Sequence record: OQ561750
Origin: Escherichia phage LHE83
Strand: one strand, 5' to 3'
Length of the DNA stretch: 64,000 nt
A program made the position numbers and the translations under genes. Below the pieces are notes generated by a model. It saw only the letters and a program-made list of their open reading frames with translations. It was not told the DNA's origin and did not search any database. The number at the start of each line of letters is the position of its first letter. Position 1 is the stretch's first letter. Shown piece by piece: positions 3,346-49,325 of this stretch.

Positions 3346-3915
3346 ATGAACATCGAACAAAAATGTCTTTATCAAGACCGAATCAATTCCAAATTCTCAA
3401 AACACGAACAGAATCTTTTAGAAAAATGTCTAGATGCTAAAAAGGACCCTAACTTCCATTACGACCTTGATAAGCTAGTTCGTAAGCATGTTACTTCAGC
3501 GGTTCCGGTAGAGCTTTATCGTGGGATTACCGCTATGGAACTTGAGCAACTTGAAGTTCTTTCTGTTGGGTGCCAGTGGTCTCCTGGCCGGGTTACTTCT
3601 TTTAGTACACAATACTCACAGGCTCGTCAGTTCGCAGGGGCATGGGAATATGGAACCAGAACCATTTTAAGTCTCAGGAATGCACCGTTCATTTTCGACT
3701 ACTATAACCATGCTATCGACCTTGTTCTTGCAGGGAATGTAGATGAGCTTGAAATAGATGAAACCCGTATAGACCTCTACGATATGGTCGAAACTGAATG
3801 TGAGTTCATGGTCTCCAGCCAATCACGATTTGAGATTGTGGAAATCGAAACTATCAAAAGGGACCCGTACGAAATCGAGTACAAAACAATTCATTTAAAA
3901 ATGTTGGATTTTTAG
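3346..3915 (+). CDS. modB: ADP-ribosyltransferase, ModB-like
   Basis: 189 aa; ART motif set R (LYRGI), S-x-S (SFS), E-x-E (ETECE); paralogue of next ORF; modB or modA identity by gene order only. Confidence 0.55.
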   Translation: MNIEQKCLYQDRINSKFSKHEQNLLEKCLDAKKDPNFHYDLDKLVRKHVTSAVPVELYRGITAMELEQLEVLSVGCQWSPGRVTSFSTQYSQARQFAGAWEYGTRTILSLRNAPFIFDYYNHAIDLVLAGNVDELEIDETRIDLYDMVETECEFMVSSQSRFEIVEIETIKRDPYEIEYKTIHLKMLDF

Positions 3916-3944
3916 TTTACAGGCAAGGAAGCTTGTGGTACTAT
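3915..3944 (+). promoter_or_regulatory. early promoter (GTTTAC, 18 bp, TACTAT, then CTATCAACT)
   Basis: -35 overlaps upstream stop codon; conserved downstream block. Confidence 0.5.
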
Positions 3945-3969
3945 CTTTCTATCAACTGAGGAGAATAAT

Positions 3970-4584
3970 ATGTTATATCCAAGCCATAAATTAGCAGAAT
4001 TTATCAACAACGCCAAATGCGATGATTTCCGTGAGAATACTCAGATAGAAATTGATGAGGTGTATTCTGATTTAGAACAGAGCACGCTCTGGCAGTGTAT
4101 GGAAAATAAACCAGATACTATCCAGGAAACTCTGAACAAAATTATTCGTAAGAACCTGACTTCTGCAGTGCCTGATAAGTTGTATCGCGGAATTTCTAAG
4201 AAGACTATGGCATATCTTGAATCTACGATGTGCGTAGGTGCTGTAATTGAATTCGACCGTGTGATGAGCTTCTCAAAAGATTTCAATGTAGCTCGTAACT
4301 TCGCATCTTATAACTTCTACGGCACATTTAATATCTTTTGTATTAATGATGCACCATTTGTGTACAATTATCAGGAAGAAATCTTTAAAATGTTATGTGC
4401 CGCGCCCCCTGAAGAGTTCCCAGGTGCATTTCCTGAATCTACCCGTGTAGCAAACTTACAATTAATCAATGATGAAGATGAGATGATGTTCCCTGCGGGA
4501 ACTACGCTGAGCGTAGACTCTATTGAGAGAAATCCTAAATGGAATAATTACACCATTTGGAATCTTTCCGTTCTTTCTTACTGA
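3970..4584 (+). CDS. modA: ADP-ribosyltransferase, ModA-like
   Basis: 204 aa; ART motifs R (LYRGI), SFS, E-x-E (EDEMM); paralogue of previous ORF. Confidence 0.55.
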   Translation: MLYPSHKLAEFINNAKCDDFRENTQIEIDEVYSDLEQSTLWQCMENKPDTIQETLNKIIRKNLTSAVPDKLYRGISKKTMAYLESTMCVGAVIEFDRVMSFSKDFNVARNFASYNFYGTFNIFCINDAPFVYNYQEEIFKMLCAAPPEEFPGAFPESTRVANLQLINDEDEMMFPAGTTLSVDSIERNPKWNNYTIWNLSVLSY

Positions 4585-18123: not shown

Positions 18124-18386
18124 ATATCAAATTATATTACGCTAAACACAAAGTTACGGGTACGGTTGTTGCCGCCATGTATGACGCGTCAGGTGATGGT
18201 GACGATATTACTACAGAGTTATCTCTTTCTGAATGTAAATTTCTCCGTCCTTTAATCGCATCAAAGGAAGATTTACAAAAACTTATCGATGGAAAACTGG
18301 ATAATGTTGATGGCATAGATATTCTTTATGACCTTCGCACTGCATTGTACAGAGGATTGATTGAAATTAAAGAGGTAGTATTTTGA
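18120..18386 (+). CDS. hypothetical protein (88 aa), GTG start, paralogue of previous ORF
   Basis: GTGA overlap with upstream stop; GAGGTGG SD. Confidence 0.45.
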   Translation: MNIKLYYAKHKVTGTVVAAMYDASGDGDDITTELSLSECKFLRPLIASKEDLQKLIDGKLDNVDGIDILYDLRTALYRGLIEIKEVVF

Positions 18387-18476
18387 GTAGCAAAATGTGG
18401 TGCCTTATTTGGTTGACCTGTATCCCAGTGATTTGCGTATGTTTTAGTTTATTGTTGTGAAAATTGGCATAAAACA

Positions 18477-18505
18477 GTGTACATCTCCATTAATCATGAT
18501 ATTAT
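18477..18505 (+). promoter_or_regulatory. early promoter in hairpin cassette (GTGTAC, 17 bp, TATTAT)
   Basis: 11-bp arms CATCTCCATTA (18482-18492) and TAATGGAGATG (18518-18528); 3' arm carries the SD. Confidence 0.5.
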
Positions 18506-18531
18506 AGACCTATCAACTAATGGAGATGATT

Positions 18532-18642
18532 ATGAAAAACTTACTTAAAGCAATTTGGAACATGTTTGTGTTGTTAATGGTATTGAGCATTTTCCCAATC
18601 GTTTTTATGATTGACCATGTACGTGTATTCTTTAATTTCTGA
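18532..18642 (+). CDS. small hydrophobic peptide (36 aa)
   Basis: ATG with GGAGATG SD; single predicted TM helix; hand-translated. Confidence 0.35.
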   Translation: MKNLLKAIWNMFVLLMVLSIFPIVFMIDHVRVFFNF

Positions 18643-18652
18643 GGAAAATATT

Positions 18653-18865
18653 ATGAAACTTTTTAAAGATGTCGCAGTTGGTGAGAGCTTTGTATTACAT
18701 AACGGCCAACAACTGATTCGCATTTCTCCTTTGCAAGTTGGTACTGAATTACAACCTGTTAATGCCACAGACCTTTATGATTCAACTAAGCGTTTTTGTG
18801 TAGGCCCTAGTGTGCAATGCCTTACTGTTGATGAACTGATGGCTATTTCTGTTGACGCTGAATAA
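18653..18865 (+). CDS. hypothetical protein (70 aa)
   Basis: ATG with GAGGAAAA SD. Confidence 0.45.
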   Translation: MKLFKDVAVGESFVLHNGQQLIRISPLQVGTELQPVNATDLYDSTKRFCVGPSVQCLTVDELMAISVDAE

Positions 18866-18875
18866 GGAAAATATT

Positions 18876-19220
18876 ATGTCTAAATTATTTTTTGGTAATC
18901 GCAACATTATGTTCTTTAAACAACTCAGCCTCCAAGATGCATCGGTGGCATTCAATCAAAGTATGATTCCCGGTGTAGATTCAAAAATTATGACGAGTGC
19001 TGATTTCGTTTTCGTTCAAGACCCAGAAACAGGCTTTTATCGGTTCATTAAATTTCGTATGAGTATGGACCCAGGTTATCATAGTGCTTACTACGTGAGT
19101 TATGAAAACGTTATCAAAGAATTACGTGATACCTATGGACGCGCTTTGAACCCGCTGAACAAGGTTTATAATGCTTCTTTTTATACGAGCGGATTTATTT
19201 TAGAACAGCTACAAAAATAG
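18876..19220 (+). CDS. hypothetical protein (114 aa)
   Basis: ATG with AAGGAAAA SD. Confidence 0.45.
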   Translation: MSKLFFGNRNIMFFKQLSLQDASVAFNQSMIPGVDSKIMTSADFVFVQDPETGFYRFIKFRMSMDPGYHSAYYVSYENVIKELRDTYGRALNPLNKVYNASFYTSGFILEQLQK

Positions 19221-19248
19221 TTTACAACCTCGAGAATCGTGTTATAAT
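19220..19248 (+). promoter_or_regulatory. early promoter in hairpin (GTTTAC, 17 bp, TATAAT)
   Basis: Stem CGAGAA / TTCTCG encloses -10; -35 overlaps upstream stop. Confidence 0.55.
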
Positions 19249-19297
19249 GGTTCTCGTTGACTGGATAACAAAACATTAATCTACTGAGGAAATTGAT

Positions 19298-19747
19298 ATG
19301 AATACTTATATGACTCGCCGTAACGTTCTGTCTGCTGGTGCTACTACTGTTGCTTATGTTAAGAACGGTGAATACCAAAATGGTAAACCTTCTAAAGAAA
19401 TCTCTGCTCAGCCAGGCTTCTACTTCTTTGTTAAAGGTGGTGCTGATTCTCGTGTCGTAGCGGCTCGTTTTTATGTCGGTAATCAACGTTCGGCCCAAGG
19501 GCTCGACGGTATCGTGGCTAACATTCGTAAGAAACGTTCTCAATCAGCTCGCACTATGGCAGTGAACGGTGTTGTGTATGAAGTTCTTTATGTACCGGCT
19601 TCTAAGATGAAACCCCTGACTACAGGTTTTGGTAAGGGTCAAATTGCAATGGCTTTCACTCGTAATCATAGTTCCGACCTCCAGACACTGGAAGAAATGA
19701 ACCGTATGTTGGCTGATAACTTTAAATTCATCCTGCAGGCTTACTAA
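19298..19747 (+). CDS. ndd: nucleoid disruption protein Ndd
   Basis: 149 aa; long colinear match to T4 Ndd as recalled ([10 protein letters not shown]...TGFGKGQ...[13 protein letters not shown]). Confidence 0.85.
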
Positions 19748-19824
19748 TGAGTAATTTCCATAACGAGCATGTGATGCAGTTCTATCGTAACAATCTTAAA
19801 ACTAAAGGCGTCTTCGGACGCTAA
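19747..19824 (+). CDS. stp: Stp peptide (host anticodon-nuclease/restriction modulator)
   Basis: 25 codons [25 protein letters not shown], matching T4 Stp; start overlaps ndd stop; 3' end forms a GGCGUC-UUCG-GACGC hairpin. Confidence 0.8.
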
Positions 19825-19834
19825 TGAGGAAAAT

Positions 19835-19996
19835 ATGGTTATCCTAGTTTTTATTGAACTTATTATGGCTATAGTCTGTTCAGTTTGCTTCTTTTTAGGT
19901 GTGTGGGCCCCTCGTCCGATATTCTTAAGTTTTCTGCTTATTGGTTGGGTTCTTTCTACTTTTGTCGGTTTACTTAAGACGATTAAAAATGATTAA
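19835..19996 (+). CDS. ac: small membrane protein (53 aa) at the T4 ac position
   Basis: Two hydrophobic helices; lies between stp and 52 as T4 ac does. Confidence 0.45.
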   Translation: MVILVFIELIMAIVCSVCFFLGVWAPRPIFLSFLLIGWVLSTFVGLLKTIKND

Positions 19997-20129
19997 TAAA
20001 ATCCTGGGCTACTCGTTAGCCCTTGCTGCTTTATTAGTAGCGCTGTATTACGGAGTAATGTTCGGACTTATCCAAGTTGTGCTTTTTATTTCCGATGTTA
20101 TTATGGCTATTCATTCACTAGTATGGTAA
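19989..20129 (+). CDS. small membrane peptide (46 aa)
   Basis: ATG overlapping upstream stop; hydrophobic. Confidence 0.35.
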   Translation: MINKILGYSLALAALLVALYYGVMFGLIQVVLFISDVIMAIHSLVW

Positions 20130-20133
20130 AATT

Positions 20134-21513
20134 ATGGCTGATGTAATTGATACCCTTTTTAAACAGGCTTTAGATGTTTACGATGATTCTTTCACTCGTC
20201 GTGACTTAAAAAGTATTATCGACAACGAAGCATTGGCTTATGCAATGTATACTGTCGAAAACCGAGCCATTCCAAATATGATTGATGGCTTTAAACCTGT
20301 ACAACGTTTTGTAGTGGCTCGTTGTCTTGATATGGCTCGTGGTAATAAAGAAAAATTCCACAAACTGGCTTCTATCGCTGGTGGTGTAGCCGACCTCGGA
20401 TATCACCACGGTGAAGGTTCTGCTCAGGAAGCAGGGGCTTTGATGGCTAACACATGGAACAACAACTATCCATTGTTAGACGGTCAAGGTAACTTCGGTT
20501 CTCGATTGGTTCAAAAGGCTGCAGCCTCTCGTTATATTTTTGCTCGTATCGGAAGTAACTTTGCAAAAGTTTATAAGGACACAGAATATGCTCCGGTTCA
20601 TGCGGATGTCGAACATAAGCCACCGGCTTTTTATCTGCCTATTATTCCTACTGTTCTTCTTAATGGCGTTTCCGGTATTGCAACTGGTTATGCAACTAAT
20701 ATTCTTCCTCATAGTTTTGATTCTGTTAAGAAAGCTGTACTGCAAGTTCTTCAGGAAAAACGAGTAACCAAACCCAAAGTGGCTTATCCTGAATTCCGTG
20801 GTGAAGTTGTTGAGATTGAACCTGGTAGTTATGAGATTCGTGGAACGTATAAGTTCACATCCCGAACCCAAATGCATATCACGGAAATCCCATACAAATA
20901 CGACCGTGAAACATATGTGGCTAAGGTATTAGACCCTCTGGAAGACAAAGGGTATATCACATATGATGATGACTGTGACGAGAACGGTTTTGGCTTCAAG
21001 GTTAAGATTCGTAAAGAATACGAATTGCCTACCGAAGAAAACAAGAAGCATGAAAAAATCATGAAGGACTTCGGGTTAATCGAACGTCGTTCACAAAACC
21101 TGACCGTCATTAATGAAAAAGGTAAACTTAAGGTTTACGAAGATGCAGTTGAACTGATTCGTGATTTCGTTGAGGTCCGTAAGACCTTTGTACAAAAACG
21201 TATTGATGGTAAAATCATCGAAACCGAAGAAGCTTTTAAACTAGCATTGGCTAAAGCCACATTCATCAAAGATGTTATTGACGGGACTGTAGTTATCCAA
21301 GGTAAGACTCGTAAGGTTTTAACTGAGGAATTGGCTGGTAATAAAGTCTACGGCGAATACGCTGATAAACTGGTTGCAATGAACATTTTCCATATCACAT
21401 CCGATGAAGCCAAGAAACTGGCCCTCGAAGCCAAGGCTAAGAAAGAAGAGCATCAATACTGGAAATCTACTGATGTGGTAACTGAGTATGTTAAAGATTT
21501 GGAGGCTCTATGA
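20134..21513 (+). CDS. 52: DNA topoisomerase II medium subunit gp52 (GyrA-like)
   Basis: 459 aa; N-terminal region RDLKSIIDNEALAYAMYTVENRAIPNMIDGFKPVQRF as recalled for T4 gp52. Confidence 0.9.
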   Translation: MADVIDTLFKQALDVYDDSFTRRDLKSIIDNEALAYAMYTVENRAIPNMIDGFKPVQRFVVARCLDMARGNKEKFHKLASIAGGVADLGYHHGEGSAQEAGALMANTWNNNYPLLDGQGNFGSRLVQKAAASRYIFARIGSNFAKVYKDTEYAPVHADVEHKPPAFYLPIIPTVLLNGVSGIATGYATNILPHSFDSVKKAVLQVLQEKRVTKPKVAYPEFRGEVVEIEPGSYEIRGTYKFTSRTQMHITEIPYKYDRETYVAKVLDPLEDKGYITYDDDCDENGFGFKVKIRKEYELPTEENKKHEKIMKDFGLIERRSQNLTVINEKGKLKVYEDAVELIRDFVEVRKTFVQKRIDGKIIETEEAFKLALAKATFIKDVIDGTVVIQGKTRKVLTEELAGNKVYGEYADKLVAMNIFHITSDEAKKLALEAKAKKEEHQYWKSTDVVTEYVKDLEAL

Positions 21514-21614
21514 GCCTTGGAGTCGAGTTCTTGTTACTCTGTATCTTTGCTGTTATTCTGGGCCTGGCGACAGGCTTAGCTATAGGTTTAATAGCAGCTC
21601 ACTTTAAAAAGTAA
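21510..21614 (+). CDS. small hydrophobic peptide (34 aa)
   Basis: ATGA overlap with gp52 stop; one TM-like segment; followed by terminator. Confidence 0.3.
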   Translation: MSLGVEFLLLCIFAVILGLATGLAIGLIAAHFKK

Positions 21615-21636
21615 GGAACCTTCGGGTTCCTTTTTT
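21615..21636 (+). terminator. intrinsic terminator (GGAACC-UUCG-GGUUCC plus U6)
   Basis: Identical hairpin to the one after soc. Confidence 0.75.
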
Positions 21637-21653
21637 GGTTTAGTGAAAAAAGT

Positions 21654-21682
21654 GTTTACTTCTGCTTTAAACATGATACTAT
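21654..21682 (+). promoter_or_regulatory. early promoter for motA (GTTTAC, 17 bp, TACTAT, AGACCTATCA)
   Basis: Conserved promoter block. Confidence 0.55.
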
Positions 21683-21720
21683 AGACCTATCAAAACAATA
21701 GAGTGAAATGGAGATACAAA

Positions 21721-40565: not shown

Positions 40566-42248
<1,683 letters not shown>

Positions 42249-42305
42249 AAATTCAAATAATCTGTACTCTGTTTTTGGTTATTATGGTCGGACTGAATTT
42301 CATTC

Positions 42306-42313
42306 TATAAATA
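42306..42313 (+). promoter_or_regulatory. TATAAATA late-promoter-like element upstream of nrdA
   Basis: Exact TATAAATA about 64 nt upstream of nrdA ATG; followed by inverted repeat GTTCTA / TAGAAC. Confidence 0.35.
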
Positions 42314-42376
42314 TCAGTCCATGCTTAACAGGTTCTATGATAGAATAATTGTAGAACCTAACACATTGAGGAAATT

Positions 42377-48934: not shown

Positions 48935-49221
48935 TTAAATTATCTGTAGTAGTATTATCTATTGGCTTGTTAGTTGGATGTGCTCAGGAGCTTCCTGTAG
49001 TGCCTAAGCAACAACTACATCCTTCATGGCCACAACCTATTGCCGAACATAATGTTAAATGGCAGGTTAAGGTAATCGATGGTAAAGCTTGGGTTGGGAT
49101 GCCGTTTGAAGACTCCCAAGAACATCGTATTTGGTTGAATGACGTAAAAAGATATGTACAAGACCAGAAATCTATGTTATGTTATTATCGTTCCGGTCTA
49201 AAAGAGGAGAAGTGCAAATGA
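48931..49221 (+). CDS. o-spanin lipoprotein (Rz1-like; T4 pseT.2 position)
   Basis: 96 aa; signal peptide with lipobox LLVGC; Pro-rich mature part. Confidence 0.65.
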   Translation: MIKLSVVVLSIGLLVGCAQELPVVPKQQLHPSWPQPIAEHNVKWQVKVIDGKAWVGMPFEDSQEHRIWLNDVKRYVQDQKSMLCYYRSGLKEEKCK

Positions 49222-49325
49222 TTGAGACATGTGTTTGCGGTTGGGATGCCGTTAGATTTGGCGCTGCATTCTTTTGTTTTGGGATTGTGTTCAGCATGTG
49301 TATGCATGGTCTTTTCGGAAAGTAG
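49218..49325 (+). CDS. small hydrophobic peptide (35 aa)
   Basis: ATGA overlap with o-spanin stop; GAGGAG SD at 8 nt; Cys-rich hydrophobic; hand-translated. Confidence 0.3.
   Translation: MIETCVCGWDAVRFGAAFFCFGIVFSMCMHGLFGK

Follow-up and report, generated by a model that had tools for sequence, protein, structure and literature searches.

Conserved mini-genes around stp and gene 52 of Escherichia phage LHE83 and their counterparts in T-even phages

Introduction

Between denB and motA the genome of phage T4 (NC_000866) carries, in this order, ndd.6, ndd.5, ndd.4, ndd.3, ndd.2a, ndd.2, ndd.1, ndd, stp, ac, 52.1, 52 and motA.1. Early transcription is assigned to motA.1, 52.1, ac, stp and ndd.2-6 (PMC9697503 Table S2). 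The sa-delta-9 deletion, which runs from 52.1 to denB, leaves the phage viable, and infection then no longer stimulates phosphatidylglycerol synthesis; a membrane location is presumed for several of the missing genes (PMC6071114). The GT7 deletion (52.1 to rIIB) is viable as well (PMC9712115). When ribosome-binding sites of T4 were blocked by CRISPRi-ART, each of the mini-genes was scored 'Not Fit', meaning that fitness on laboratory E. coli was not impaired, and the same treatment of gene 52 did impair it (PMC11879866 supplement). Here we describe the mini-genes of this region, together with two located elsewhere, in a 64,000-nucleotide (nt) stretch of the Escherichia phage LHE83 genome (OQ561750), referred to throughout as the window.

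T4 Stp is described as a peptide of 26 residues whose inhibition of type Ic restriction enzymes unmasks the anticodon nuclease PrrC; the 18 N-terminal residues are given there as the most important for activity, and removal of the last eight codons as reducing both activities moderately, no more (PMC3014915). The genes ndd.4 and ndd.5 are a published example of exchange as promoter–stem-loop cassettes (Comeau 2014, PMC4122927). No functional study of 52.1, motA.1 or ndd.4 was found in our search of the literature.

Results

Mini-genes of the window and their T4 counterparts

The mini-genes of the window are very probably ordinary early accessory genes of a T-even phage that have already been catalogued. 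The following open reading frames (ORFs) are concerned; SD stands for Shine–Dalgarno sequence and aa for amino acids.

18383–18460, plus strand: ndd.6 homologue, 25 aa; its TTG start overlaps the upstream stop (TTGA)
18532–18642, plus strand: ndd.4 homologue, 36 aa, predicted to cross the inner membrane once
19747–19824, plus strand: stp, 25 aa, whose start codon shares the final base of the ndd stop codon (TAATG)
19835–19996, plus strand: gene in the ac slot, 53 aa, with two hydrophobic segments around APRP and a GAGGA SD
19989–20129, plus strand: 52.1, 46 aa, Pfam DUF7396; overlaps the ac-slot gene by 8 nt and stops 4 nt before the gene 52 ATG
21510–21614, plus strand: gene in the motA.1 slot, 34 aa, a single hydrophobic helix; overlaps the gene 52 stop (ATGA) and precedes motA
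42245–42310, plus strand: hydrophobic ORF of 21 codons behind td, overlapping the td stop (ATGA)
49218–49325, plus strand: hydrophobic ORF of 35 codons behind the o-spanin gene, overlapping the o-spanin stop (ATGA), with a GAGGAG SD

A preliminary description of the window had listed all of these except ndd.6: a clear Stp, a membrane protein in the ac position, further tightly coupled hydrophobic mini-ORFs nearby, and similar ones behind td and the o-spanin gene. All of the listed ORFs are present and overlap their neighbours as it had reported, and every peptide except Stp is strongly hydrophobic, with a grand average of hydropathy (GRAVY) of 1.15–2.19. Stp itself is basic and hydrophilic (GRAVY –0.94). 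The mini-ORFs that the same description called further ones are not supported as new genes: they match ndd.4, 52.1 and the motA.1 slot of T4, are annotated in phages E33 and KIT01, have annotated counterparts in T4, and fall into Pfam DUF7396 or PHROG families. The only items that are outside annotation and family libraries are the 21-codon ORF behind td, the start of ndd.4, the TTG start of ndd.6 and the lack of homology in the ac and motA.1 slots.

In a megablast comparison with GenBank phages, positions 18380–21720 are 96.6% identical over their full length to Escherichia phage vB_EcoM-E33, and 93–96% identical to IME08, JS10, JS98, Bp7 and other members of Dhakavirus. Judged by these identities, the window is from a Dhakavirus, that is, a JS98/IME08-like T-even phage. 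The same interval is collinear with T4 denB–motA. Both share the backbone denB ... ndd.6, ndd.4, ndd.1, ndd, stp, ac slot, 52.1 and 52, whereas the window has fewer ndd.x genes (ndd.2, ndd.2a, ndd.3 and ndd.5 are absent) and carries, unlike T4, an ORF of 114 aa between the ndd.1-like gene and ndd. By gene order and homology, the 'deletable' denB–motA region of T4 corresponds to the part of the window that begins with ndd.6 and ends with the motA.1 slot, called the block below. The close relatives E33 and KIT01 have annotated coding sequences (CDSs) for the mini-genes of the block, and the older records of IME08 and JS10 omit several of them.

Evidence for coding

A 5-kb stretch of this DNA contains 71 ORFs of at least 20 aa, so that an open frame of such size is little evidence by itself. 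What raises the mini-ORFs above chance is their conservation, namely family matches, frame-specific purifying selection and a fixed position relative to gene 52. Every mini-ORF except that of 21 aa matches a PHROG or Pfam family; Pfam alone gave no match for ndd.4, ndd.6, the ac-slot gene or the ORFs behind gene 52, td and the o-spanin gene. As a conservation sample we used 48 IMG/VR loci around gene 52, with gp52 identities from 99% down to 29%, and searched each peptide against all six frames of these loci. Matches with E < 1e-3 were all on the coding strand and all in the syntenic position. The ratio of non-synonymous to synonymous differences (pN/pS), computed on pairs with unsaturated synonymous change, is 0.06–0.54 in frame for most of the ORFs, with ndd.6 as the exception at 0.80, and about 0.8–2.0 in the shifted frames of the same DNA (0.60 for the +1 frame of the ORF behind td). 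Most frames are thus kept under purifying selection across relatives. Family-specific motifs are also conserved in the alignments, for example LKAIWN...IFP.V..ID in Ndd.4. The existence, homology, synteny, purifying selection and translation signals of the mini-genes were all observed.

With regard to translation signals, the mini-genes fall into two sets. An SD of their own precedes ndd.6, ndd.4, the ac-slot and motA.1-slot genes and the ORF behind the o-spanin gene, and each of these would initiate from it. By contrast, stp, 52.1 and the ORF behind td have no convincing SD and lie directly against, or across, the stop of the preceding gene, an arrangement that points to coupling by termination–reinitiation, through which these three would be translated. 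The messages would be polycistronic mRNAs from early promoters.

Conservation of 52.1 upstream of gene 52

The gene next to 52.1 served as the anchor for the mini-genes in the comparison:

20134–21513, plus strand: gene 52, topoisomerase II medium subunit, 459 aa, annotated in relatives; pN/pS 0.06

The 46-aa ORF at 19989, described earlier as overlapping the gene in the ac position, does so by 8 nt. It matches PF24129 (DUF7396) over its full length (residues 1–46) with 78 bits against a cut-off of 27, belongs to phrog_3595, and is identical to T4 gp52.1 in 44 of 46 residues; T4 has the same 8-nt overlap between ac and 52.1 and the same 4 nt between 52.1 and gene 52. In-frame pN/pS is 0.25. 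Between the window and T4, 52.1 differs by three non-synonymous and 13 synonymous changes (pN 0.029, pS 0.39), while for gp52 pN is 0.128 and pS 0.69, and thus the small protein is more conserved than the essential enzyme beside it. Alignments of 52.1 display the motif LYYG..YG...VLFISDVI...S..W-COOH, the protein always ending in tryptophan.

When the 48 loci were searched with a profile built from diverse 52.1 sequences, 36 gave a match, never more than one each, and one of these is a deletion remnant. The match is always on the coding strand and always ends 1–11 nt before the start of gene 52. Among the GenBank records listed, most of those of Tequatrovirus have no annotation where 52.1 matches. 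The gene is present down to about 61–66% gp52 identity, and the loci that lack it mostly have gp52 of no more than about 63% identity. By these comparisons, the 52.1 family is under strong constraint and keeps a fixed place immediately before gene 52. In a collection of 5.8 billion proteins its homologues amount to 13 clusters, all with PF24129, which argues against a wider 52.1 family; nine of the clusters have a source name, and these are T4-type phage proteins except for one record labelled Shigella sonnei. AlphaFold2, run with a 13-sequence alignment, models the protein as a single uninterrupted helix from residue 2 to residue 45 (predicted local distance difference test score, pLDDT, 96.5).

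A variant of this junction is seen in a 155-kb contig (L036, positions 3801–4013), where the ac-slot gene has been joined by a deletion to the 3' part of 52.1, of which a remnant is all that is left, and gene 52 is apparently truncated to 400 codons. The fusion may have arisen naturally by deletion or may come from faulty assembly.

Unrelated genes in the ac and motA.1 slots

The gene between stp and 52.1 had been described as encoding a membrane protein in the position of ac. Position, length (53 aa) and hydrophobicity agree with that description; homology to T4 Ac does not, as none was detected between the family alignments (hhalign probability 0.4%). The product of the acridine sensitivity/resistance locus of T4 (51 aa) resembles the window protein in its slot, size, hydrophobicity and 8-nt overlap with 52.1, and yet the two belong to different PHROGs, phrog_2501 for T4 Ac and phrog_9347 (E = 5e-26) for the protein of the window. 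In-frame pN/pS of the ac-slot gene is 0.54, against 0.93 and 1.37 in the shifted frames. Both proteins end in 'ND' (19989–19996 in the window). This is because the overlapping, conserved start of 52.1 forces AATGATTAA, which reads N-D-stop in one frame and M-I-K/N in the other.

The situation behind gene 52 is similar. The 34-aa ORF at 21510 does overlap the gp52 stop, as ATGA, and has a GGAGG SD 4 nt upstream; it is a CDS in E33 and KIT01. T4 MotA.1 (49 aa) is like it in slot, size range, hydrophobicity and ATGA overlap with the gene 52 stop. It differs in family, since the ORF of the window belongs to phrog_16377 (E = 2e-21) and MotA.1 to phrog_3487, and no homology between the two proteins was detected with hhalign (probability 0.7%). 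In-frame pN/pS is 0.06 for the window type (0.84 and 1.17 in the shifted frames) and 0.08 for the T4 type. About 60% of the 48 loci have a hydrophobic ORF that overlaps the end of gene 52, and these ORFs comprise at least six unrelated sequence types (34, 49, 59, 23, 45–46 and 26 residues), all with GRAVY 1.3–2.7. Taken on sequence comparison, the ac and motA.1 slots are positions where unrelated genes for small membrane peptides replace one another between genera. As a consequence of the lack of homology, the names and phenotypes of T4 Ac and MotA.1 are not transferable to the genes of the window.

The ORF behind gene 52 runs into a possible termination signal:

21613–21632, plus strand: intrinsic-terminator-like UUCG hairpin with a T run; begins inside the stop codon of the 34-aa ORF, an 8-bp stem followed by TTTTTT

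Such an arrangement raises the alternative that the mini-ORFs are cis-acting translational devices, 52.1 for gene 52 and the ORF behind gene 52 for the terminator at 21613, the peptides themselves being irrelevant. Several features would fit: the SD of gene 52 is weak, and no more than 4 nt separate its start from the end of 52.1; stp, 52.1 and the ORF behind td lack their own SD and touch the upstream stop; the ORF behind gene 52 stops at the foot of the terminator hairpin; and its slot is filled by unrelated sequences between genera, yet the overlap with the gene 52 stop is nearly constant. We nevertheless consider this explanation quite improbable. The peptides are constrained, with in-frame pN/pS of 0.06–0.27 and, in 52.1, 44 of 46 residues kept relative to T4 despite the 13 synonymous differences, and the replacement ORFs behind gene 52 are without exception hydrophobic, which a pure spacer frame would not need. 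Moreover, blocking the 52.1 ribosome-binding site in T4 costs no fitness and blocking that of gene 52 does (PMC11879866), indicating that gene 52 expression is independent of 52.1 translation. The same data disfavour an obligate dependence of gene 52 translation on 52.1 (PMC11879866).

The placement of 52.1 upstream of gene 52, its conservation beyond that of gp52 and the repeatedly replaced hydrophobic ORF over the gp52 stop could be read as a membrane link. The bracketing of gene 52 by adjacent membrane micro-proteins, seen in most genomes of the T-even type, may reflect a connection of topoisomerase or replication with the inner membrane, or 52.1 may underlie the stimulation of phosphatidylglycerol synthesis that is lost in sa-delta-9; we put forward this pair of ideas as speculation with a small chance of being right.

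ndd.6, ndd.4 and the smallest frames

At the other end of the block, ndd.6 matches phrog_8851 (E = 2e-14), and phmmer relates it to T4 Ndd.6 (3e-5) and to 22 other loci. It has an AGAGG SD 7 nt upstream. Its start alternates between ATG and TTG at the homologous position, being TTG in the window and ATG in T4 and several loci.

The ndd.4 homologue is preceded by a promoter-like element:

18478–18505, plus strand: early-promoter-like cassette upstream of ndd.4, sigma-70-like TGTACA-16-TATTAT with TG

The 36-aa ORF had been said to lie behind its own promoter cassette, and an equivalent of the element, GTTTACA-N17-TAnnAT, was present in all 26 distinct sequences examined upstream of ndd.4 homologues. 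Promoter-early stem-loop (PeSL) cassettes of T4-like phages were reportedly described by Arbiol in 2010. The ndd.4 gene of the window resembles them in standing behind its own conserved early-promoter-like element and differs in that the promoter part alone was confirmed; a scan found no stem-loop directly upstream of 18478. Ndd.4 is 61% identical to its T4 namesake (BLASTP E = 2e-15), falls into phrog_3098 (E = 5e-21) and has an in-frame pN/pS of 0.25, against 0.99 and 1.72 in the shifted frames. A GGAG SD lies 6 nt upstream. The ATG at 18520 is not conserved: longer starts read MEEQK- in T4 and MEMI- in KIT01 and JS10, and in several Tequatrovirus-like loci the codon is ACG. What is conserved is a start at the MKK/MKN codon, behind a GGAG(G) SD; counted from it, Ndd.4 has 36 aa in the window and about 37 aa in T4, where a longer start is annotated.

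The 21-codon frame behind td was likewise found as described and is kept in six related contigs (L055–L058, L079 and L085). Its pN/pS is 0.27, against 0.60 and 2.04 in the shifted frames. No family in PHROG or Pfam matches it, and none of the GenBank relatives listed has a CDS for it. These properties bear on the possibility that the smallest frames, this ORF and ndd.6, are untranslated chance ORFs in T-rich DNA. Short ORFs are abundant, as counted above, T-rich sequence yields hydrophobic codons, and the pN/pS of ndd.6 is 0.80. On the other side, the 21-codon frame persists in L079, where Td is 68% identical, the ORF no longer overlaps the td stop and most replacements are conservative, and a relative of 22–25 aa occupies the same place in L087, ending in LNLFL (the ...LN(L/F)xL end is shared). 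In ndd.6 the pattern W-C-x-(I/V)-W ... I-P-x-(I/V)-C is kept across 23 loci, and ATG and TTG alternate behind the SD. Chance ORFs are for these reasons a very unlikely explanation even for the smallest frames, and we retain them among the accessory mini-genes.

Some features of the neighbouring DNA were noticed in passing. In IME08 (HM071924, L154 positions 233–400) a CDS named 'nrdA.1' is annotated after td in another frame than the 21-codon ORF and without a start codon, and has probably been misannotated. In the interval before nrdA (42312–42376), downstream of the 21-codon ORF, an inverted repeat GGTTCTA ... TAGAACC and a TGCTTA motif resembling a MotA box, with TAGAAT downstream, can be seen by eye. 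Many relatives have an insertion of about 290 bp in the interval between this ORF and nrdA, where several records annotate an nrdA.1 or hypothetical-protein CDS.

The ORF behind the o-spanin gene

The strong SD attributed to the 35-codon ORF was confirmed as GAGGAG. The ORF matches phrog_23289 (E = 1.5e-15), has a pN/pS of 0.27 (1.00 and 1.16 in the shifted frames), with variable sites distributed 13/9/24 over the three codon positions, and carries an in-frame deletion of one codon in one relative; about two-thirds of the related records listed leave it unannotated. Compared with L137 and L145, its DNA is 74–78% identical and the o-spanin gene 93–97%. The drop beside a well-conserved neighbour suggests exchange of alleles, that is, a local allelic mosaic. 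T4 has at this place PseT.1, which is unrelated and hydrophilic: BLASTP gave no alignment between it and the 35-aa ORF at E ≤ 100. Other genera carry there a hydrophobic ORF of 32 aa, MRK(M/F)TLGAKLFC..., whose family reaches a profile–profile probability of 34% with the 35-aa family, controls reaching up to 8%.

stp, its hairpin and the question of host defence

Stp had been recognized in the preliminary description from its likeness to T4 Stp, and a UUCG hairpin had been noted at the 3' end of its gene; both assignments hold. The peptide matches Pfam PF08133 with 72.1 bits against a cut-off of 25, covering residues 1–25 of 26, and phrog_6763 with E = 1.6e-20. All 25 residues, including the 18 N-terminal ones, are identical to residues 1–25 of T4 Stp, and only the final glutamine of T4 is missing. 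The gene has a pN/pS of 0.16. By homology, the Stp of the window would be the known inhibitor of type Ic restriction (EcoprrI) that also triggers PrrC. The window also carries a homologue of pseT, the gene for polynucleotide kinase, which together with a second enzyme repairs the damage done by PrrC.

The end of the gene folds as follows:

19807–19822, plus strand: hairpin of the C(UUCG)G type, GGCGUC-UUCG-GACGCU, formed by the final five codons of stp and separated by 4 nt from the SD of the gene that follows

Its predicted energy is –9.3 kcal/mol (z = –3.1 against shuffled sequences). Both sequence types of Stp keep it: in the 11 distinct sequences compared, the variation amounts to a single change to G-U and a single loop that reads UUUG. 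The hairpin codons (GVFGR) are invariant in both types, and residues 11–20 vary (window and the stp loci in L008–L045). Given this invariance, the mild effect of deleting the last eight codons in T4 and the proximity of the hairpin to the next SD, the comparison suggests that the RNA hairpin itself may be under selection. An Rfam scan of the whole window at gathering thresholds found no RNA family, which places the hairpins of the window outside the curated families.

In L009 (3147–3990) and L020, the module is duplicated in tandem: an stp of the second type is followed by a 49-aa ORF resembling T4 Ac, then by a 5' fragment of 52.1 fused to a start-less stp of the first type, and finally by a normal ac-slot gene and 52.1. 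The structure looks like the recombination scar of a cassette exchange between phages.

The known interactions of T4 Stp led to the proposal, in the preliminary description, that the additional micro-peptides could target host membrane or defence proteins. As effectors like Stp, they would inhibit membrane-associated defence proteins or trigger abortive-infection systems. The genes do adjoin stp in an accessory region that is variable between genera; the turnover of unrelated families in the ac and motA.1 positions and the allelic mosaicism behind the o-spanin gene are typical of arms-race genes; and dispensability in laboratory strains fits strain-specific counter-defence. However, we found no sequence, structural or literature link of the hydrophobic peptides to restriction, anticodon nuclease or other defence. 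Stp is hydrophilic and unrelated to them, and 52.1 is extremely conserved rather than fast-evolving, contrary to what an arms-race role of this gene would entail. In an accessory-gene screen available as a preprint, Stp is mentioned, as a control only. A role in counter-defence is on balance unlikely, if somewhat less so than the other alternatives considered above.

Discussion

The reading that we prefer is that the mini-genes are accessory genes of the early region, with early transcription and dispensability presumed by analogy, as carried over from the T4 literature. From their hydropathy, all of the peptides of 21–53 residues except Stp are dominated by one or two hydrophobic helices, with which they are predicted to enter the inner membrane of the host. 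There they would most likely act as non-essential, host- or condition-specific modifiers of envelope physiology, for example of permeability, lipid synthesis or the exclusion of other phages; it is unlikely that they are needed for replication. Dispensability on laboratory E. coli fits such accessory or host-specific roles and does not thereby identify a target. Small membrane proteins with defined targets are known, among them Imm, Sp and RI of T4 and AcrZ of E. coli. These are of similar size to the peptides of the window and have one or two membrane helices, and Imm, Sp and RI are early genes that are non-essential in the laboratory, but none of the four has a sequence relationship to the window peptides. 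We know of no target for any of the latter.

Several points weigh against this reading. Membrane insertion is predicted from hydropathy alone, and the model of 52.1, being one helix of 44 residues, does not decide between one and two membrane crossings. MotA.1, gp52.1, Ac, Stp and Ndd.2-6 were undetected in T4 proteomics (PMC9697503 Table S2), and our literature search found no ribosome profiling of T4 or another T-even phage. The pN/pS values are ratios of sums over non-independent pairs and are descriptive; that of the ORF behind td comes from five distinct sequences, and purifying selection on ndd.6 is weak.

As a discovery the block has little weight, because the genes between 18383 and 21614 were mapped in T4 decades ago and are covered by Pfam and PHROGs. 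The support for the micro-ORFs as coding matters since they are missing from many GenBank records. The names Ac and MotA.1 should not be given to non-homologous genes that merely share a slot with the T4 genes. Finally, 52.1 (DUF7396) is unusually constrained and yet dispensable in the laboratory, which makes it a reasonable first target for studying the function of small membrane proteins in T-even phages.

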